Below, piece after piece: positions 4,604 to 35,850 of a DNA stretch of 35,864 bases (positions are counted from its first letter, which is position 1; each line of letters opens with the position of its first letter). Location of the stretch: UHGV virus genome UHGV-0042415. One strand, given 5' to 3'. Made by a program: the position numbers and the translations under genes. Below the pieces are notes generated by a model. The model did not search any database, had not been told where the DNA came from, and was given only the letters and a program-made list of their open reading frames with translations. The stretch is from a virus.

Positions 4604-4899
4604 GCGCCATCAACCACCAGGAATTACGCGAACTGGCGATTGACCTGCAACGAATGGCAACGCATCAAAAATTACTGGCGTTTCGCGCAATGCTCTCGCC
4701 GTCTGCCGTGCTGGCACTGCTGGATGAGCTGGAGCACGCCAGAACCATGTCTCCAGCCATTCGCCTGGCGCTCCATCATGAAATCGCTGATTTCTGCGCT
4801 CCACTGGGTTCGCCTGGTGAACCAGAAACGCCGGAAGCAATGCAACGAGAGCTACTGCAACGCATCGACAAGGTTTTTGATTTCTTCCTTAACCAGTAA
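4600..4899 (+). CDS. Hypothetical early protein (Ead/Ea22-like features)
   Basis: 99 aa; helical, LLDELE-type motif; SD ggagg upstream. Confidence 0.55.
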   Translation: MSAINHQELRELAIDLQRMATHQKLLAFRAMLSPSAVLALLDELEHARTMSPAIRLALHHEIADFCAPLGSPGEPETPEAMQRELLQRIDKVFDFFLNQ

Positions 4900-4910
4900 A
4901 GGACCGCGAT

Positions 4911-5114
4911 ATGAACAAAAAGACCTGGTTTCGCGCATACATGTGGGCGCTGGTATGCGTCCTCGTTTCTCTCATTCTGTATGCAGGACTACTCCCCCGA
5001 ATGATTTCATCAGACAGCTCCTTCTTGGTATTGCTGGGCATTTTCATTGCCATGCTGTACCCGGCAGGCGTTGTTCGCCTTTTCAGTAAGTACATCAAGG
5101 AAATCAAACAATGA
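4911..5114 (+). CDS. Small two-TM membrane protein, likely partner of the downstream SPFH protein
   Basis: 67 aa; two hydrophobic segments (WALVCVLVSLILYAGLL, FLVLLGIFIAMLYPAGVV); stop overlaps the SPFH gene start (ATGA). Confidence 0.6.
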   Translation: MNKKTWFRAYMWALVCVLVSLILYAGLLPRMISSDSSFLVLLGIFIAMLYPAGVVRLFSKYIKEIKQ

Positions 5115-5941
5115 AGAAACTCAAACTCTTTCAGATTATCCCGCTTTTTGCCGCCATCCTGCTGGTTGGTTGCGATCGCGTTGAGCCAGGTAATGTGGGC
5201 ATCAAAGTCAACAAACTGGGCGACGACAAAGGCGTCGGTGAAGTGGTTGGCGTTGGCCGCTACTGGACAGGCTGGAATACAGAGGTTTACATCTTCCCGA
5301 CCTTCAAACAAATGAAGACCTACGATGAGCCGTTCAGCTTTCAGATGAGTGACGGCACAACCATCGGCTATCACATCGGTGTGGCCTACAAGGTTGATCC
5401 ATCCAAAGTTACTACAGTGTTTCAGACCTACCGCAAAGGCGTGGACGACATTACCGACACTGACCTGCGCCAGAAGATCGCCGATGCACTCAACCGACTG
5501 GCCAGCAAAATGACCACCGATAAATTCATCGACGGTGGCAAGTCTGAACTGCTGGATTCAGCACTTAAAGATATTCAGGAAGAGATGACCCCCATCGGTA
5601 TTCAGGTCATGAGCCTCTCTTATGTCGGTAAACCGGAATATCCGCCAACCGTTATCGACAGCATTAACGCCAAAGTCACGGCAAACCAGAAAACCCTGCA
5701 ACGCGAACAGGAAGTCAAGCAACGCGAAGCAGAAGCCAACATGTTGCGCGCAGAAGCTGCCGGACAGGCTGATGCCATTCGCACAAAAGCCCAGGCTGAA
5801 GCCGACGCCATTCGTTTACGCGGTGAAGCTCTGCGCCAGAATCCCGGCGTTATGGAGCTGGAAGCAATCAACAAATGGAACGGCACGCTGCCGCAATACA
5901 TGACCAGCAATACCGCTGTTCCGTTTGTTCCGGTGAAGTAA
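5111..5941 (+). CDS. SPFH/band-7 (prohibitin/HflC-like) domain lipoprotein
   Basis: 276 aa; lipoprotein signal with lipobox LLVGC; SPFH-like core followed by an A/E/Q-rich coiled-coil tail (QREQEVKQREAEANMLRAEAAGQADAIRTKAQAEADAIRLRGEAL). Confidence 0.7.
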   Translation: MKKLKLFQIIPLFAAILLVGCDRVEPGNVGIKVNKLGDDKGVGEVVGVGRYWTGWNTEVYIFPTFKQMKTYDEPFSFQMSDGTTIGYHIGVAYKVDPSKVTTVFQTYRKGVDDITDTDLRQKIADALNRLASKMTTDKFIDGGKSELLDSALKDIQEEMTPIGIQVMSLSYVGKPEYPPTVIDSINAKVTANQKTLQREQEVKQREAEANMLRAEAAGQADAIRTKAQAEADAIRLRGEALRQNPGVMELEAINKWNGTLPQYMTSNTAVPFVPVK

Positions 5942-9880: not shown

Positions 9881-10840
9881 ATGAAAATTTGTATCGACGA
9901 CGGCTCCACCAACATCAAGCTGGCATGGACTGAGAACGGCGAACGCCGCAACGCCATCAGCCCGAACAGCTTCAAGTCGGAATGGTCTGCGCCGTTCGGT
10001 GGCACGCAGCCCGCGAACTACATGCTTGATGGCGTGCGCTATGGTTTTGATCCGGTCAGCGATCGCTTTGTCCAGACGACCGACACGCAATACCAGTACA
10101 GCGATGTGAATATAATTGCCATTCATCACGCGCTGGTCAAATCAGGCATCACACCACAGGAAGTGGATGTGGTTGTCACCCTGCCACTGAGCGAGTATTT
10201 CGATACAAACGCACAGCCGGACATGGCCAACATCAACCGCAAAAAAGCGAACGTCATGCGCCCGGTGGAGTACCAGAACGGCGAAGCATTCACTATCCGT
10301 AACGTACGGGTTATGCCTGAATCCATTCCGGCTGGCTTTAAGGCACTGGCTGACATGAGTCCGTTTGAATCCCTGCTGATTGTGGATTTGGGCGGAACCA
10401 CGCTGGATGTGGCAAAGGTTCAGGGGCAACTGGCAGGTATCAGCCAGGTGTTTTGCGATCCACACGTGGGCGTTTCTCTGATGGCCGATGCCGTACTGTC
10501 GGTGATGGCCACTAACGGTATGCGCACCAGTCACCACATCGCCAATACCATTATCGAACATCGCCATGATGAAGCCTGGCTGCGCCAGCACATCCACAAT
10601 GACGCGCATTACGCCAGCCTGATGGCGGTAATTCGTGAAAAGGAAGAAACACTGAAACAACGCGTGATCCGCGCGCTGGCGGGTTTTTCGGGTTACGGGC
10701 GGGTGATGGTTGTCGGTGGAGGGGCGGAGATTGTGGCACCCGCTATCCGCGAAGCCTGCGGAGTTAATGCGACTTTCATCGCGGACGGGGTGCCACAGTT
10801 TGCTCTGGTTAATGGGCTGTACGCAATGGACAAGGAGTAA
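9881..10840 (+). CDS. parM: ParM/StbA-like actin-fold segregation ATPase
   Basis: 319 aa; N-terminus MKICIDDGSTNIKLAW closely matches plasmid R1 ParM (MLVFIDDGSTNIKLQW); phosphate-2 motif LIVDLGGTTLDVA; same length as ParM. Confidence 0.85.
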   Translation: MKICIDDGSTNIKLAWTENGERRNAISPNSFKSEWSAPFGGTQPANYMLDGVRYGFDPVSDRFVQTTDTQYQYSDVNIIAIHHALVKSGITPQEVDVVVTLPLSEYFDTNAQPDMANINRKKANVMRPVEYQNGEAFTIRNVRVMPESIPAGFKALADMSPFESLLIVDLGGTTLDVAKVQGQLAGISQVFCDPHVGVSLMADAVLSVMATNGMRTSHHIANTIIEHRHDEAWLRQHIHNDAHYASLMAVIREKEETLKQRVIRALAGFSGYGRVMVVGGGAEIVAPAIREACGVNATFIADGVPQFALVNGLYAMDKE

Positions 10841-10844
10841 ACCA

Positions 10845-11156
10845 ATGACGACTCCAACCAGACGGATAAGTTTCTATCTGAAGCCCACCGCCGTCAAGAA
10901 CGAAGGAGAAGCATGCGCCTGGCTGGACAGCCTTACACCAGAAGCCCGCAAAAGCGGCCAACGCGTGGCTTTTCTGGCCGGGCTGGCACTTCTGAAAATG
11001 AATCCGGCAGAGGCTTATCGACTGGCTGCATGGGCTGGTGATGAAGCGTTATCAGTGACACAAACCAGGACAGAACGCCCCGCATCACAGCCAGTATCAA
11101 CCGCACAGATAACCAGTCAGATGGCCGGAAATATCCGGGCGTTATTTCCTGAATAA
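10845..11156 (+). CDS. parR: ParR-like small DNA-binding adaptor protein
   Basis: 103 aa from the ATG at 10845 with SD aggag; RRISFYLKP...AFLAGLALLKMNP...IRALFPE resembles R1 ParR (RTIAFKLNP...AALTAGLALY...LRSLFPKE); directly follows parM. Confidence 0.65.
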   Translation: MTTPTRRISFYLKPTAVKNEGEACAWLDSLTPEARKSGQRVAFLAGLALLKMNPAEAYRLAAWAGDEALSVTQTRTERPASQPVSTAQITSQMAGNIRALFPE

Positions 11157-11219: not shown

Positions 11220-11603
11220 ATGAGCGAAATCAACTATCAGGCATTACGTGAACGTTATTCACCTGTGCCAGTACCGAAATGCCCTATTTGCGGCGAGGAA
11301 ATGTCAATTCAGCGAATATCTGGAGCACAGGTTGTTTATGCCTGCTCCGGTTATGGTGATGATGGAGATTTCAAAATTGGTCGAACTCTTGCCGACGAAC
11401 ATTATGAAAAATCACGCGTAACAGTGTTGGATGTCGGGGATCCTGAAGTATTGGCGCTACTTGATTGGCTGGAAACCAAAGACAACCGAATCGCTGAACT
11501 GGAAAAAATCGCCACTGACTATGCACTTAAATTCCAGAAAGCACAGGACGCATTAAAGTACGCCGCTTTGCTGCATAGCAGGACAGCGCAGCTAAAATAC
11601 TAA
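11220..11603 (+). CDS. Hypothetical protein with N-terminal Cys cluster and helical C-terminus
   Basis: 127 aa; CPICGEEM...YACSGYGDDGD; SD aaggag upstream. Confidence 0.6.
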   Translation: MSEINYQALRERYSPVPVPKCPICGEEMSIQRISGAQVVYACSGYGDDGDFKIGRTLADEHYEKSRVTVLDVGDPEVLALLDWLETKDNRIAELEKIATDYALKFQKAQDALKYAALLHSRTAQLKY

Positions 11604-11693
11604 CTTAAAGCGGAAGATTAATACATGGTGAGTCGGGGTAATTTGTTTTTATCCCGACAAATAAACAAAAAAGTGGACTATCTCTGTAGTATC

Positions 11694-12224
11694 TTATTCA
11701 GCATCGTCTCGTGCAGTCTGTGCATACGTCACAACAACGCCCAATGCATTAGTTTTCTTTTCAACATAGATAATATTGTCATATTCATAGTTACCATACG
11801 GATAGCAAATAAGAATATTTTTATGCAGTTCGGGATCATCAACAAACGCTCCGGAACAGCTTCTTGAACTACCAGATGTATACTCATACGGTGCAACATA
11901 TGATGATGTTACTCCTGGTAAAAAATAAGTCACCATCATAAGAGGGATAATCAGGAATATCCCTGTAAGAATGCAAGAGCCAGCATAAACCTTCAGGTAT
12001 TCCGACAGTCCTTTCCAGCCACTTTGCTTCACTACCCCCCTCTTCACCAGAAACAAGGAGAAGAAAAAGGACATACCCATACTACACAAGATGTAATAAT
12101 TGGATATACGCGAATTAAGATATGTAATCCTGTAGATATCTGCCCTCCACCAGTAAAAGAGGAAAATAATCCCTAGCACTGAAACAGTCATGCAAATCAA
12201 ATAAGGATATGAATCTTTCTTCAT
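11694..12224 (-). CDS. Three-TM inner-membrane protein with soluble C-terminal domain (AT-rich cargo)
   Basis: 176 aa; hydrophobic segments YLICMTVSVLGIIFLFYWW, YILCSMGMSFFFSLFLV, CILTGIFLIIPLMMVTYFL; strongly AT-rich gene on the strand opposite its neighbours. Confidence 0.7.
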   Translation of the reverse strand: MKKDSYPYLICMTVSVLGIIFLFYWWRADIYRITYLNSRISNYYILCSMGMSFFFSLFLVKRGVVKQSGWKGLSEYLKVYAGSCILTGIFLIIPLMMVTYFLPGVTSSYVAPYEYTSGSSRSCSGAFVDDPELHKNILICYPYGNYEYDNIIYVEKKTNALGVVVTYAQTARDDAE

Positions 12225-12828
12225 GTCTTGCGCTCATTAAAATTTCCCTGCTACGAACAAATTTACCATCCGTTTTTTGCGCAGAAAACAGCACGATGCA
12301 CACTGCACGATAGTGCACAAATTTGCACAATTTTTTTGAACGACTTTTTCCCCTTCCGGCCCGTATAGCGGCTGGATCCGTCAAGGATCCGTGCGTGCAC
12401 AAAAAAACGCGCTTTTTCTGCGCGCAGGTGACGGGGGAACAGCCCGCGTTTCAGGGGGTAAATAGCATTCCCTGAACGATGTCGCAGCGACACAACAGAA
12501 TGGCTGTATCGCTCACGCTGAGCGTGAAAAATACGTAAGGGGTTCTGATTTGATGGGGTGAAAGGTAAGGCCGTCAAATCGCAATGAGACGGCGAGAACA
12601 TGCTGTCAGCTCGATGGGATTGCGTAAGAGTCTGGCCATCGATGATGGCGATAAGTTGGAAGACGTCGTGAAATTATCTGATTGATACGGGTGCTGGAGA
12701 GTCGGGGCATAAATTTTTTATGCCCCGGCGAAGCAGCAGACAAGCGAAGCGCGTCAGTGATGCGGCACCTTGCCGACCACACTCCATAAGTGCAAAATAC
12801 GAGCAAAGAAATCAATGGAGGCTGTTTT

Positions 12829-13353
12829 ATGGTCATTAATTACAAGCAGTTACGAGAAAAACGAGAGCAGGTAAAGGAAAGTTTTCGCCGCAATGAAGAT
12901 CTGACCCCGCTTGTACACCTTGCCCAGGGAATTGTTGATGCTTATGAAATCTCTCTGGAGCTGCCATCACAGACATGGACGGATAGCGACGGTAATCGCC
13001 AGCATTACGTTTCATGCGGACTGGAAACAACTGAAGGGTTTCGCAGAATGCCTTTATCTCAGATTCCTGCCGCTACCCCCAAAGCAAGGGGCGGCAATGA
13101 TGAGCGAAAACTGATTTTTAGCATTGAGACAGTGGTTGACGACACACCTGGCGAAGTCGCGTTCGTGCATACTCCTCTTTCGATCGCAATGTATAACGAT
13201 GAAATACAGGTTCGCGTTAATAATAATATCGTGCCACTTAAAGAAGGTAATTCACCCTACACCACCGTTTGTGAAGCCATTCAATATTACGTTCTCTCTG
13301 AAATTGATAATCTCAAGCCTGACGGCACCCAGAAAATGGTTCAACTCTGGTAA
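12829..13353 (+). CDS. Hypothetical soluble protein between the putative cos region and the portal gene
   Basis: 174 aa from the ATG at 12829 with SD ggagg (the ORF track starts at an upstream GTG); followed by its own terminator. Confidence 0.6.
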   Translation: MVINYKQLREKREQVKESFRRNEDLTPLVHLAQGIVDAYEISLELPSQTWTDSDGNRQHYVSCGLETTEGFRRMPLSQIPAATPKARGGNDERKLIFSIETVVDDTPGEVAFVHTPLSIAMYNDEIQVRVNNNIVPLKEGNSPYTTVCEAIQYYVLSEIDNLKPDGTQKMVQLW

Positions 13354-32283: not shown

Positions 32284-32440
32284 AGCTTCAGCCCCTTGTA
32301 TCCGTTAAATGATTAGGCAACAATCATCACCCACCACGCGCGTAATCTCACCCCTGCGCCATTCTCCCGCCACGGCGACAACAAAAAGCAGTAACCCCCT
32401 CCGCACGCACATGCGACCATGCCGCACAGGGAGGGAACAG

Positions 32441-33550
32441 ATGACCGACACCACCATGCAATTGCTCAGTCAGGGCACAGACCCTGTAAAAATGCCGGAT
32501 TTTGATATTCTCGCGGAGGGTAAAACGCTGTCAGGCGTGGCAGAGCGCCTGATGAGCCTGTCACTGACCGACAACCGTGGATTTGAGGCGGACCAGCTCA
32601 CCATCACGCTGGATGATGCGGATGGTCAGTTGCAGCTACCGCCACGGGGCGCGCGCCTGACGGTTCTCATTGGCTGGAAAGGAGAACCGCTGACAGAAAA
32701 AGGCACTTACATTGTTGATGAAATCGCTCACGAAGGACCGCCGGACAGGCTGACTGTTTCAGCCAGAAGCGCAGATTTTCGGGATGAATTTAACGTTAAA
32801 CGTGAGGTGTCCTGGCATGATGTGACCGTTGAGCGTGTGGTATCCGCCATCGCTCATCGGTACGGTCTGAAACCACAAATCAGCGAAATACTGATGGATA
32901 TTGAAATCGACCACGCCGACCAGACCGAAGAAAGCGACATGTCCTTCCTTACGCGCATGGCGGAAATGCTGGGCGCAATCACCACGGTAAAAAGCGGTAA
33001 TCTGTTATTCATCATGCCTGGCGGTGGCGTGAACGCACAGGGCCAGCCGTTGCCCTCATTCGCCATCACACGCAGCAGTGGCGATCGCCATCAGTTCCGC
33101 ATTGCTGACCGCGAAGCGTATACGGGGGTACGCGCTTACTGGCTTGATCTTAATTACGGGAAAAAGAAAAAAGTCAGCGTGAAACGCCGCAAACCGCCAA
33201 AACCCAAAAAGGAGAAAAGCAGCAGCCGTGAAGGTGATTATATGGAAGGCGCGGAAGGCAATGTGTTTGTGTTACGCAAGACTTATCAGAACGAGCAGGC
33301 AGCAAGACGCGCAGCGGCGGCGAAGTGGCAGCAGCTACAACGCGGAGCCGCATCATTCTCCATCACGCTGGCACGTGGACGAGCAGAACTCTACCCCGAA
33401 ATGCATGGCACGGTAACAGGATTTAAAAGCGAGATTGATAATCAGGACTGGATTATTGCAAAAGCCGAGCACACCATTGATAACAGTGGTTTTACCACAC
33501 AGCTTGAGCTTGAAGCAAAAATCCCGGAATGGATAGCAGAAACAGAGTGA
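32441..33550 (+). CDS. D: Tail protein D (P2 gpD-like)
   Basis: Start at the ATG at 32441 with SD gggaggg; LTDNRGFEADQLTITLDDADGQ...LPPRG...VDEI.H.GPPD...RSADF matches P2 gpD; lysine-rich internal linker. Confidence 0.9.
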   Translation: MTDTTMQLLSQGTDPVKMPDFDILAEGKTLSGVAERLMSLSLTDNRGFEADQLTITLDDADGQLQLPPRGARLTVLIGWKGEPLTEKGTYIVDEIAHEGPPDRLTVSARSADFRDEFNVKREVSWHDVTVERVVSAIAHRYGLKPQISEILMDIEIDHADQTEESDMSFLTRMAEMLGAITTVKSGNLLFIMPGGGVNAQGQPLPSFAITRSSGDRHQFRIADREAYTGVRAYWLDLNYGKKKKVSVKRRKPPKPKKEKSSSREGDYMEGAEGNVFVLRKTYQNEQAARRAAAAKWQQLQRGAASFSITLARGRAELYPEMHGTVTGFKSEIDNQDWIIAKAEHTIDNSGFTTQLELEAKIPEWIAETE

Positions 33551-33676
33551 ACAACCTCGACGTTTTACTTAATATACAATAGCCTTCTGGACACGGTAAG
33601 GCAAGAACAAGGGTAAAAGATCCTTTACTGTCAGAGTTACAGGTTATACCTGTAAGCAAAAACAAAGGCATATATT

Positions 33677-34435
33677 ATGTTCAGTTTATTTTCGTTAACT
33701 GCCGGAGCAAATGTGCGCTGGCATGATTTACCTGGTAAAGGTATTCCTGTTGTTTTTATTCATGGGCTTGGCTGTTCCTCTTCTTATGAATATCCACGGG
33801 TTGTTGCAGATCCTGCATTTGGTGGACAACGAGCGATATTGATAGATCTCCCTGGATATGGATTCAGTGATAAGCCTAAAGGATTCGATTACAGCATATC
33901 CCATCAAGCTAAAGTTGTTATTGAAGTAGTAGAAACCTTAAATCTCTCACAGTTCCATATTTATGGTCACAGTATGGGGGGAAGTATTGCGATTGAAGTG
34001 GCCAGACAACTACATGAGAGAACAAGAAAGCTTGTGGTTTCTGAGCCTAATTTTCACTCTGGTGGAGGTACCTATAGCCGTAAGATAATAGAGAAACCAG
34101 AAGCAGAGTTTATTTCGCATATATATAATGAATTACTGGAGTGTGAAACATCCCCATGGAAAGGTGAACTCCAGAATGCAGCCCCATGGGCAATATGGCG
34201 AGGAGCCAAAAGTCTGGTTGATGGAACCACTCCATCATGGAGAGATATATTCCTTAATCTGCCCTGTTCACGTACACTAATTTTTGGCGAACAATCATTG
34301 CCAGACAATGATTTCCAGCAAATAAAAGAATCTGGAATATCTGTTGCAATAGTGCCAAACGCTGGACACTCCATGTCATGGGAAAATCCATCAGCACTGG
34401 CCTCAATTTTACATACAGAATTTTATAGAAAGTAA
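33677..34435 (+). CDS. Alpha/beta-hydrolase fold protein (putative esterase/lipase), AT-rich moron
   Basis: 252 aa; HG oxyanion motif (VVFIHGLG), nucleophile elbow GHSMGG, C-terminal His in AGHSMSW; markedly AT-rich with AT-rich flanks. Confidence 0.75.
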   Translation: MFSLFSLTAGANVRWHDLPGKGIPVVFIHGLGCSSSYEYPRVVADPAFGGQRAILIDLPGYGFSDKPKGFDYSISHQAKVVIEVVETLNLSQFHIYGHSMGGSIAIEVARQLHERTRKLVVSEPNFHSGGGTYSRKIIEKPEAEFISHIYNELLECETSPWKGELQNAAPWAIWRGAKSLVDGTTPSWRDIFLNLPCSRTLIFGEQSLPDNDFQQIKESGISVAIVPNAGHSMSWENPSALASILHTEFYRK

Positions 34436-34480
34436 AATAACCTATACATAGATATTGTTTCCACCAACATCATATTATCA

Positions 34481-34512
34481 AAGAGCAGGGCAAATTTACC
34501 TCCTGCTCTTTT
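34481..34512 (+). terminator. Hairpin terminator after the hydrolase gene
   Basis: aagagcagg-(11 nt loop)-cctgctctt followed by tt. Confidence 0.5.
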
Positions 34513-34788
34513 ACTCAAATTAGATGATTTTATAGCACACATTTTATGAAATATTTAAAATCTATAAACTTATAAGAACATTTTTTATCAAAACACATAC
34601 ATAATGAACAATCTCTTTTATCATAATTAGTAAATTATCACTTGATAATAAATGACATACTAAATATGCATCAGGGTTAATTTTTATTAATAGATAAACG
34701 TCCATGCCTCAATCTGACCTGATTGTTGATTGGCATATTCACTAGTACAATTTAAAATCACGATAGCAGCACATTAAGGGAGGTCGCT

Positions 34789-35049
34789 ATGTTTCGTTGT
34801 CCGCTTTGTGGCGCATCTGCCCGTATCCGCACCAGTCGTCCGGAAAATGATTCAAACACCGTGCGGCAAAAGTATTACCAGTGTAACAACCTGGAATGCG
34901 GCGTATGCTTCTCAACACTGGAAGCTTTCCATAAATTCACATCAAAACACGCCTCCGGCGTTCACTCTTCAGAAGGTATCCCGTGGCATGAGCTGCCAGC
35001 TTCACACAGGGGAAACAATCAGATGAGTTTGCCTTTACCTCAGAATTAA
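34789..35049 (+). CDS. ogr: Zinc-finger late gene transcriptional activator (Ogr/Delta family)
   Basis: 86 aa; MFRCPLCGASARIRTSR...YYQCNNLECGVCF matches the P2 Ogr Cys4 finger (MFHCPLCQHAAHARTSR...YHQCQNVNCSATF); SD aagggagg upstream. Confidence 0.9.
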   Translation: MFRCPLCGASARIRTSRPENDSNTVRQKYYQCNNLECGVCFSTLEAFHKFTSKHASGVHSSEGIPWHELPASHRGNNQMSLPLPQN

Positions 35050-35238
35050 CAGGCAGAATTGCCGGAGTAACAAAAAAGCGATAGATTACGTGCGGGTGCC
35101 TTTCGGCTGATGGTCGGAGGGAATACCCGAAGGCCGGATGTGGAAAGGCCCCGGAAAACATTTCTGTTTAACCGAGGCCCTAACCCGTCAACCTAGCAAG
35201 TGATAGGTTAGCGCCTCTCCAACAAAGGAGCAAGCGCT

Positions 35239-35379
35239 ATGTCGCAAAAATCGCTTACGGCCATCACGTTCTGCGTGACGGTAATCCTCATCATCTGGAT
35301 GCTGCACGGTTCGCTGTGTGAAATACGGATGAGCTTCTGGGGAGCGGAGTTTGCGGCGTTCTTACAGTGTAAGCAGTAA
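35239..35379 (+). CDS. hok: Hok/Gef-family type I toxin (small membrane toxin)
   Basis: 46 aa MSQKSLTAITFCVTVILIIWMLHGSLCEIRMSFWGAEFAAFLQCKQ; TM helix followed by the family signature SLCEI...AAF; SD aaggag upstream; stable hairpin gacgggga-ggcaac-tccccgtc downstream; too short for the ORF track. Confidence 0.8.
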   Translation: MSQKSLTAITFCVTVILIIWMLHGSLCEIRMSFWGAEFAAFLQCKQ

Positions 35380-35568: not shown

Positions 35569-35850
35569 TTACTCAGCATTCTCCTGCTTCCATTGCCGGA
35601 TCATTTCATCGGTAACATCACTTTCATAACATACCACGTCATACCCTCCAGTACGGCTATATGCACTGCGTCCACCACATCTACTACCATTCCTTGCATG
35701 ATTATACGGACACGCACAATTGCCTGGATAAGATTCAATGGATTCTTTAATTATTTCTTTCTTGATCTGAGCGTCTGACTTTCCTGTTGCTGCATACCCA
35801 CTAAAAGATACCAAACACAGGCAGATTGCCATTAATAAACCACATCGCAT
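35569..35850 (-). CDS. Small exported cysteine-containing protein of unknown function (possibly host flank)
   Basis: 93 aa; signal-peptide-like MRCGLLMAICLCLVSFSGYA; AT-rich; lies right of ogr and hok. Confidence 0.55.
   Translation of the reverse strand: MRCGLLMAICLCLVSFSGYAATGKSDAQIKKEIIKESIESYPGNCACPYNHARNGSRCGGRSAYSRTGGYDVVCYESDVTDEMIRQWKQENAE

Follow-up and report, generated by a model that had tools for sequence, protein, structure and literature searches.

Gene Content and Boundaries of the Insert

The DNA considered here, the virus genome UHGV-0042415 (35,864 nucleotides, below called the window), is a P88-like prophage of Escherichia coli belonging to Xuanwuvirus/Gemsvirus in the family Peduoviridae. 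Between its tail gene D and ogr, the gene for the late transcription activator, lies a gene for an alpha/beta-hydrolase of 252 amino acids (aa), which is a moron cassette sitting in a cargo hotspot of this temperate phage. The D–ogr segment is 94–97% identical to phages P88, P884B11, 500465-2, 520873 and others, and it has 100% identity to the chromosome of the mouse isolate E. coli M8, where the prophage adjoins tRNA-Leu/Cys/Gly and pgsA-uvrC. In P88, the stop codon of D is separated from the ATG of ogr by 42 bp. In the window, homology to P88 ends at position 33550 and is back at 34749, which defines an insert at 33551–34748; in blastn comparisons with P88, 500465-2, and 520873, the homology ends at 33550–33567 and restarts at 34745–34753. 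The features of the region, with G+C content given as a fraction (GC), are as follows.

32441–33550, plus strand: tail gene D (late control D/baseplate hub), the left anchor of the hotspot; Pfam Phage_GPD, E 4.3e-17
33551–34748, no strand: the whole cargo insert relative to P88, from blastn; 1198 bp, GC 0.37
33551–33676, plus strand: leader from the D stop codon to the hydrolase start, 126 bp; holds, in diverged form, the left border module common to other cassettes
33677–34435, plus strand: alpha/beta-fold serine hydrolase, 252 aa, predicted from the open reading frame (ORF), Pfam, NCBIfam, PHROG, the alignment, and an AlphaFold2 (AF2) model
34480–34511, plus strand: terminator-like hairpin; 11-bp stem, 10-nt loop, then a short T-rich tail
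34512–34729, no strand: AT-rich non-coding spacer; GC about 0.25, no conserved ORF, no Rfam match
34730–34758, plus strand: promoter-like site TTGGCA-17-TAAAAT upstream of ogr; the best sigma-70 match of the region, 10/12
34789–35049, plus strand: ogr, encoding the late transcription activator; right-hand anchor of the hotspot; Pfam Ogr_Delta, E 5.1e-14, and RefSeq annotation

The mechanically defined ORF of D begins at 32309; its likely true start is the ATG at 32441 behind the ribosome-binding site GGGAGGG, and the RefSeq homologues are 1101–1110 nt long.

An earlier note on this DNA, made from the letters alone, had described an AT-rich moron encoding a 252-aa alpha/beta-hydrolase between D and ogr, and this description stands. 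The ORF, together with Pfam matches of the gene and of both neighbours, confirms the gene order; the insert delimited against P88 almost exactly matches the extent given in the note; and the claimed AT-richness is indeed strong, with a GC of 0.37 in the insert versus 0.52 in the rest of the window. The note's view that no gene normally occupies this junction agrees with the 42-bp gap in P88 and with the prophage survey described below, in which 23 of 36 junctions proved empty. The stretch of about 350 bp of very AT-rich downstream DNA that it pointed out measures 353 bp and has a GC of 0.28. As to the other parts of the insert, GC is 0.41 in the coding sequence (CDS), with only 0.28 at third codon positions (GC3), 0.37 in the 126-bp leader, and 0.25 in 34513–34748.

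The hydrolase gene lies on the same strand as D and 126 bp downstream of it. A consensus scan of the leader between them gave neither a sigma-70 match nor a terminator, and no P2-type late-promoter dyad TGT-N12-ACA was found near D or the hydrolase gene in the region. The leader carries a palindrome, ACAGGTTATACCTGT, with a 6-bp stem and a 3-nt loop at 33639–33653, and is 96% identical in both other prophage lineages that bear the hydrolase.

The terminator that the earlier note had assigned to the insert corresponds to the hairpin at 34480–34511, with a folding energy of −14.6 kcal/mol and a z score of −4.6; none of 200 shuffled sequences was equally stable. Because of its 10-nt loop and short T run, the hairpin was not listed by a strict consensus scan. 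Its stem is preserved in a diverged phage allele despite changes on both arms.

The AT-rich DNA that follows was also considered as a site of a small gene or RNA. A 47-aa ORF on the minus strand is not conserved in the two other alleles, and Rfam gave no match, so that this possibility was rejected. When the segment 34436–34748 is compared with positions 4886–5245 of another hydrolase-bearing locus (L023), the two are 71% identical, with indels, whereas the CDSs are 97% identical, with a synonymous divergence (dS) of 0.08. Such a contrast between spacer and CDS suggests either a recombination break or a very fast turnover of AT-rich DNA.

The right end of the insert bears a candidate promoter. 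The site at 34730–34758 falls within a right border module that is common to all cargo-bearing variants (TTGGAG/TTGGAA … TAGAAT) among the 10 cassette types compared. A proposal that the right border arose as a duplicate of the 3′ end of D was not convincing, the similarity being about 40%.

Fold and Catalytic Residues of the Hydrolase

The protein matches Abhydrolase_1 (E 7.5e-21) and Abhydrolase_6 (E 1.2e-17, residues 25–242) in Pfam, and its PHROGs match reads only “esterase/lipase”. In the AF2 model (pLDDT, the predicted local distance difference test score, 94; pTM, the predicted template modelling score, 0.92), strands and helices follow one another in the canonical order, and a helical cap inserted between beta6 and beta7 covers the active site. 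Residues invariant in 36 aligned homologues are H29-G30, G97-H98-S99-M100-G101-G102-S103, E123-P124-N125, G129-G130-G131, W161, W174-R175, and G230-H231. The oxyanion HG motif after beta3 is provided by H29-G30, the nucleophile elbow G-x-S-x-G after beta5 by G97-H98-S99-M100-G101, and the catalytic His after beta8 by H231. In a profile alignment to the haloalkane dehalogenase DhaA, S99 coincides with the nucleophile Asp106, E123 with the acid Glu130, and H231 with His272. The canonical position of the acid after beta7 is occupied by Ser207, and the neighbouring D210 is replaced by Ala in the Klebsiella and Raoultella members of the family. From these alignments, the catalytic acid is most probably Glu123 after beta6, which would give a Ser-His-Glu triad.

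It was claimed in the earlier note that the catalytic set (HG, GHSMGG, and the C-terminal His) is apparently complete, and that a failure of these residues to align would speak against the assignment. They do align in the profile and family comparisons, being invariant in the 36 homologues, with S99, E123, and H231 falling on the DhaA triad. Its statement that the protein has no secretion signal is borne out by inspection: no signal peptide was seen by eye, there is no charged n-region, and residues 2–6 of the model form a conserved beta-strand. Judging by the conserved residues and the model, the protein looks like a serine hydrolase that is competent for catalysis and belongs to no characterised subfamily. 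It would have the build of a cytoplasmic small-molecule esterase, thioesterase, or lactonase, and the invariant Trp-Arg pair (W174-R175) in the cap, which spans about residues 130–195 and also contains the invariant W161, hints at an anionic substrate.

The search for a hydrolase subfamily by hidden Markov model (HMM) and structure comparison that the note had proposed (BioH/MenH-like esterase, lactonase, or lipase) was run, and none of the named subfamilies compared, YbfF-type esterases and meta-cleavage product hydrolases included, scored above its cut-off. In bits against the respective NCBIfam cut-offs, the scores were 62/209 for MenH, 53/256 for PcaD, 46/239 for RutD, 25/207 for BioH, 38/399 for PRK10673, and 38/462 for BphD. 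The models of macrolide esterases of the EstT-like type gave 20 bits versus 420 (NF052610) and 18.8 versus 570 (NF053684). No family of the PADLOC-DB 2.0 defence HMMs matched at E ≤ 1. In sequence and profile searches of the PDB, similarity was confined to the N-terminal half (about residues 7–125), with the C–C hydrolase CumD and small esterases as the top matches, and no close solved structure was found. Structural and sequence neighbours include AidH and Est816, which are of the acyl-homoserine lactone (AHL) lactonase type, and the viral structural neighbours in BFVD are generic, mostly from giant viruses, with no close viral relative among them. As no equivalog, defence model, or close solved structure matches, the note was also right that the function cannot be read from the sequence.

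The D–ogr Junction as a Cargo Hotspot

When 5426 complete E. coli genomes were searched with the flanks of the insert, 1648 of them (about 30%) gave matches. From these matches, 36 evenly spaced prophages having both flanks were sampled; 23 of them are empty, with a P88-like spacing, and the remaining 13 are occupied otherwise. At least ten interchangeable cassettes have been found at the junction, including that of the window (the others being loci L002, L003, and L025–L031). They are 1.0–1.8 kb long, have a GC of 0.335–0.425, and nearly all consist of a single gene. The D–ogr junction is thus a general hotspot for single-gene cargo in P88-like phages. Besides the hydrolase, its occupants are as follows.

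DUF3800 protein, minus strand; cassette in 36 genomes
SEC-C/YecA-like protein; cassette in 92 genomes
PIN_12 protein
DUF2971 protein; PADLOC candidate PDC-S31, E 5e-27
Phosphoribosyltransferase (PRTase) with a 185-aa partner; the PRTase is a weak match to PsyrT
221-aa protein, in enteropathogenic E. coli (EPEC) E2348/69
385-aa protein
340-aa protein with a weak HEPN match
132-aa protein

The cassettes are framed by common border modules. A left module with the consensus CAACTTAGATGCATTAGCTCAG lies just past the stop codon of D, a right module of the form TTGGAG/TTGGCA-17-TAGAAT/TAAAAT precedes ogr, and a repeated CAACTTAGA flanks most cassettes. In the SEC-C cassette (L026), imperfect terminal inverted repeats of 29 nt (2650–2678/4406–4434) and 36 nt (2703–2738/4346–4381) are present; their core GACTCCAACT may resemble the end of IS1, as may 10 nt of the right module. 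A transposon-like organization was considered as a general feature of the cassettes and rejected: the terminal repeat is significant only in L026 (1 of 300 shuffles), while the window reaches 35 of 300 and the other eight loci are not significant.

For two of the occupant domains a role in immunity has been described. DUF2971 is a domain of the validated lactococcal system Aristaios (PMC11381338), and DUF3800 is an effector domain of type VII retrons (PMC7736814). The hotspots of the P2 family in general are rich in defence systems (PMC9122126; PMC13586616). The D–ogr junction is absent from the list of hotspots in PMC13586616, no description of a D–ogr hotspot was found in the literature, and papers on mouse E. 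coli contained nothing specific on this prophage.

Distribution and Constraint of the Hydrolase Cassette

The hydrolase cassette is present in 6 of the 5426 complete E. coli genomes, namely four identical mouse isolates, NCTC9022 (96.7%), and a sprout isolate (90.9%), and also in two IMG/VR contigs. Three diverged prophage lineages carry it, and they occupy two attachment sites on the chromosome; the two diverged copies are in prophages at a site other than that in M8, adjoining ihfA-pheT. None of the 13 related phage records contains the gene. A conserved virion or structural component, which the note had named as the alternative to a moron, should be found in all related phages, and this gene is missing from nearly all of them.

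Among the three phage alleles, the ratio of nonsynonymous to synonymous substitution rates (dN/dS) is 0.16–0.43, and the reading frame and catalytic residues are intact in spite of DNA differences of up to 9%. Judging by this pattern of substitutions, the hydrolase gene is kept under purifying selection.

Homologues, Origin, and Other Mobile Copies

A large protein search returned 484 homologues. The closest relatives, at 70–79% identity, belong to the Lelliottia/Enterobacter sp. 638 group, Citrobacter, Serratia silvae, and Yersinia canariae, and the family reaches Vibrio, rhizobia, and Chromobacterium at 42–47% identity. Stand-alone chromosomal relatives are found at 55–78% identity in Lelliottia, Enterobacter, Citrobacter, Serratia, and Klebsiella. 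Members of the Lelliottia/Enterobacter sp. 638 group always have it just upstream of the same three genes, which encode a PTR2 transporter, a methyltransferase, and a protein with a GGDEF domain. Its other side varies and may adjoin a prophage, a CTD6/MC2 island or a UvrD island, or no such element. Enterobacter sp. 638 was accordingly rejected as a second prophage carrier, since the same chromosomal neighbours occur in Lelliottia and in metagenome contigs with different mobile elements or none. The Citrobacter copy is chromosomal, between fryA and ypdC; that of Serratia silvae, also chromosomal, adjoins ampC; and that of Yersinia canariae is beside an integrase. Homologues of about 60% identity are syntenic beside srfABC in Enterobacter, Leclercia, and Kosakonia, and further conserved neighbourhoods exist in Klebsiella and Raoultella. 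No partner gene conserved across genera was found in the neighbourhoods compared.

Truly mobile copies are few: those of the window prophage lineage, of a Salmonella plasmid, and of a Salmonella transposon of the Tn3 family. The last is a 4.7-kb element bounded by 38-bp terminal inverted repeats (97% complementary), between which lie tnpA, tnpR, and a hydrolase copy of 79% identity. Contigs that otherwise resemble each other carry this element at different insertion points. The hydrolase family has thus become mobile on at least two independent occasions, once in a temperate phage and once in a Tn3-family transposon. The best reading of the homologue distribution is that the phage acquired its gene from a family whose members in other Enterobacterales are mostly chromosomal.

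Some of the chromosomal neighbourhoods deserve mention in their own right. In Lelliottia amnigena (L021, 2969–5686), an integrase-bounded island by the chromosomal orthologue encodes proteins with CTD6 and MC2 domains and a 609-aa protein, and it has the look of a conflict-system island. At this chromosomal site, Enterobacter sp. 638 carries a prophage and another locus (L116) a UvrD-helicase island, so that the site is an integration hotspot. In the Enterobacter cloacae complex (L012–L014, 5741–5914), the orthologue is located 87 bp downstream of a small toxin gene of the OrtT/GhoT type, on the same strand, between ydc genes and srfABC.

Possible Function of the Cassette

According to the model proposed here, the enzyme would cleave a small ester, lactone, or thioester in the cytoplasm. 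Since the leader contains no promoter match and no terminator follows D, read-through from D is taken as the default route of expression: transcription would enter the cassette from D, the cassette hairpin would terminate the read-through transcript, and the promoter-like module at the right border would restart transcription for ogr.

The explanation tentatively favoured is that a cytoplasmic esterase was captured that benefits the carrier bacterium by a detoxifying, resistance-like, or scavenging trait; the chance of its being correct is put at a little less than even. That a Tn3-family transposon has independently taken up the same gene, as its sole passenger, fits a benefit at the level of the host. 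Several points weigh against this explanation. The GC3 of the phage allele is 0.28, far lower than the 0.36–0.67 of the closest relatives examined. All NCBIfam equivalog scores fall far short of their cut-offs and the structural neighbours have an identity of just 15–21%, so that no substrate or subfamily can be assigned. If the gene is expressed by read-through only, the enzyme would appear late in lytic growth and be silent in the lysogen, which weakens the case for lysogenic conversion and keeps a lytic-cycle or counter-defence role alive. Finally, the other cargo of the junction appears to have a defence-like flavour, and this favours an anti-phage role by association.

This association is what supports the view that the cassette is a single-gene system of anti-phage defence or superinfection exclusion made in the lysogen, which might, for example, deprive an invader of a needed lipid, acyl carrier, or metabolite through hydrolysis, or damage the cell upon infection. 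The neighbouring occupants (DUF2971, PIN_12, HEPN-like, the PsyrT-like PRTase pair, DUF3800, and SEC-C) would fit such a role, as would the wealth of defence systems in P2-family hotspots (PMC9122126; PMC13586616) and the AT-rich, patchy (6/5426 genomes) cassette under purifying selection. The protein itself gives less encouragement, as it has no PADLOC match at E ≤ 1 and no sensor or regulatory domain; its orthologues in several genera are stable, syntenic, and chromosomal, outside defence islands; no promoter match is available for expression in the lysogen; and a literature search found no stand-alone alpha/beta-hydrolase defence gene. Defence is hence considered unlikely, albeit worth keeping in mind. 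An expression limited to the lytic cycle would instead suit a counter-defence or auxiliary enzyme co-transcribed late with D, which would break down an immune signal of the host or some other small molecule, or would alter host metabolism or the envelope while virions are being made. With the gene on the D strand, 126 bp downstream, and neither a terminator nor a promoter match in between, a late D–hydrolase transcript is the simplest reading, and the presence of the AHL-lactonase-type enzymes AidH and Est816 among the neighbours is also counted in favour of this role. This role is nevertheless held to be very improbable: far fewer than 1% of related prophages carry the gene, its orthologues are chromosomal and one is a transposon passenger, which points to the cell rather than the virus as the beneficiary, and its structural neighbours among viral proteins are generic and stem mostly from giant viruses. 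Moreover, anti-defence enzymes are not known to have this fold, which was also counted against it.

There remains the view that the cassette is a neutral hitch-hiker, a chromosomal gene trapped by illegitimate recombination and of no use to phage or host. The great rarity of the cassette, the fact that four of its six genomes represent one identical mouse-associated lineage, and the lack of an assignable function are what one would expect of such a gene. It is hard to reconcile with this view that the frame and the catalytic residues are intact in three lineages up to 9% apart in DNA, that dN/dS is 0.16–0.43, and that the CDS is far better conserved than the adjoining spacer; the strong compositional drift (GC3 0.28) without decay also suggests a long residence under constraint. 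A neutral passenger is thus regarded as distinctly unlikely. Captured from a chromosomal family and maintained by selection, the hydrolase is still best explained, with the reserve expressed above, as an enzyme that serves the bacterium carrying it.

Taken alone, the gene adds another uncharacterised enzyme to the accessory functions of prophages, and as such it is genuine, though fairly ordinary. A stable chromosomal gene turned mobile follows the pattern of intrinsic traits becoming mobile, which makes its substrate worth finding. The junction, for its part, is a tidy single-gene cargo site in a very common type of E. coli prophage, and its other occupants look defence-like. A bolder idea, to which only a small probability is given, is that the hydrolase represents a new kind of stand-alone anti-phage enzyme (or an inter-bacterial toxin, or an antimicrobial resistance enzyme) among the at least ten D–ogr cassettes. 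If a new kind of anti-phage enzyme is indeed involved, the hotspot would be a compact, easily mined reservoir of candidate defence genes, each with its own copy of the ogr promoter module. Relative to the earlier note, the analysis adds that the junction is a general hotspot, that the family is mostly chromosomal in other Enterobacterales, and that the catalytic acid is probably Glu123.

Other Accessory Loci of the Prophage

Just after ogr, at 35094–35379, lies a toxin–antitoxin locus of the hok/sok type. It comprises a sok RNA match at 35094–35249, whose 47 bits are below the Rfam gathering score of 59, and a 46-aa Hok/Gef ORF at 35239–35379.

The classical hotspot between gpA and the portal gene is also occupied. 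At 9881–11156 it encodes an actin-like ATPase of the ParM/StbA type (319 aa) together with a Plasmid_stab_B protein. A plasmid-type partition system is unexpected in an integrating prophage of the P2 family, and it may reflect an episomal phase. The rest of this hotspot (11220–13353) encodes an Ead/Ea22-like protein and ORFs of 176, 112, and 187 aa; the three ORFs gave no Pfam match, and all four proteins gave no PADLOC match. At the end of the prophage (35569–35850, minus strand), a Cys-rich protein of 93 aa is encoded whose N-terminus appears to be a signal peptide; this protein, annotated as hypothetical, is also present in P88.

Comparison with Known Enzymes, Mobile Elements, and Hotspots

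With the Abhydrolase_1/Abhydrolase_6 superfamily (PF00561, PF12697), the hydrolase shares the fold, the HG oxyanion motif, the G-H-S-M-G elbow, the C-terminal His, and the helical cap after beta6. Among solved structures it comes nearest to small carboxylesterases and feruloyl esterases (7dq9, 5h3h, 4uhc, 6eb3/8v16), with an identity of 15–24%, and it differs from them by a cap and a C-terminal half specific to its own family. Like DhaA, it probably places the catalytic acid after beta6. An assignment to the haloalkane dehalogenases (DhaA/LinB type and HLD-III, 8ooh) was rejected all the same: the nucleophile is Ser rather than Asp, S-M replaces D-W, so that the halide-binding Trp is missing, and the NCBIfam scores are 50–54 bits versus cut-offs of 241–466.

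The best PDB sequence matches are meta-cleavage product (MCP) hydrolases, which act on C–C bonds (CumD, MhpC, BphD; 2d0d/1iun, E 1.8e-17 with the family profile). Unlike in these enzymes, the match is limited to the N-terminal half, the BphD model scores far below its cut-off, and the gene has no aromatic-degradation context. In MCP hydrolases the catalytic His is followed by Trp, whereas in the window hydrolase it is followed by Ser-Met.

As a mobile gene, the hydrolase invites comparison with the passenger genes of Tn3-family transposons, since its Salmonella homologue is the sole passenger of a tnpA-tnpR element. In contrast to that copy, the gene of the window has no transposase or such repeats nearby, and the two share the CDS alone, at 73–77% nucleotide identity.

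The closest parallel to the junction itself is offered by the P2 hotspots old/tin, between gpA and the portal gene, and Z/fun, within the tail genes. There, too, AT-rich accessory genes with defence-like cargo are present, absent, or replaced at a fixed junction. The hotspot described here differs from them in its position between D and ogr, in belonging to another genus (the P88-like Xuanwuvirus/Gemsvirus), and in its cassettes, which nearly always consist of one gene.

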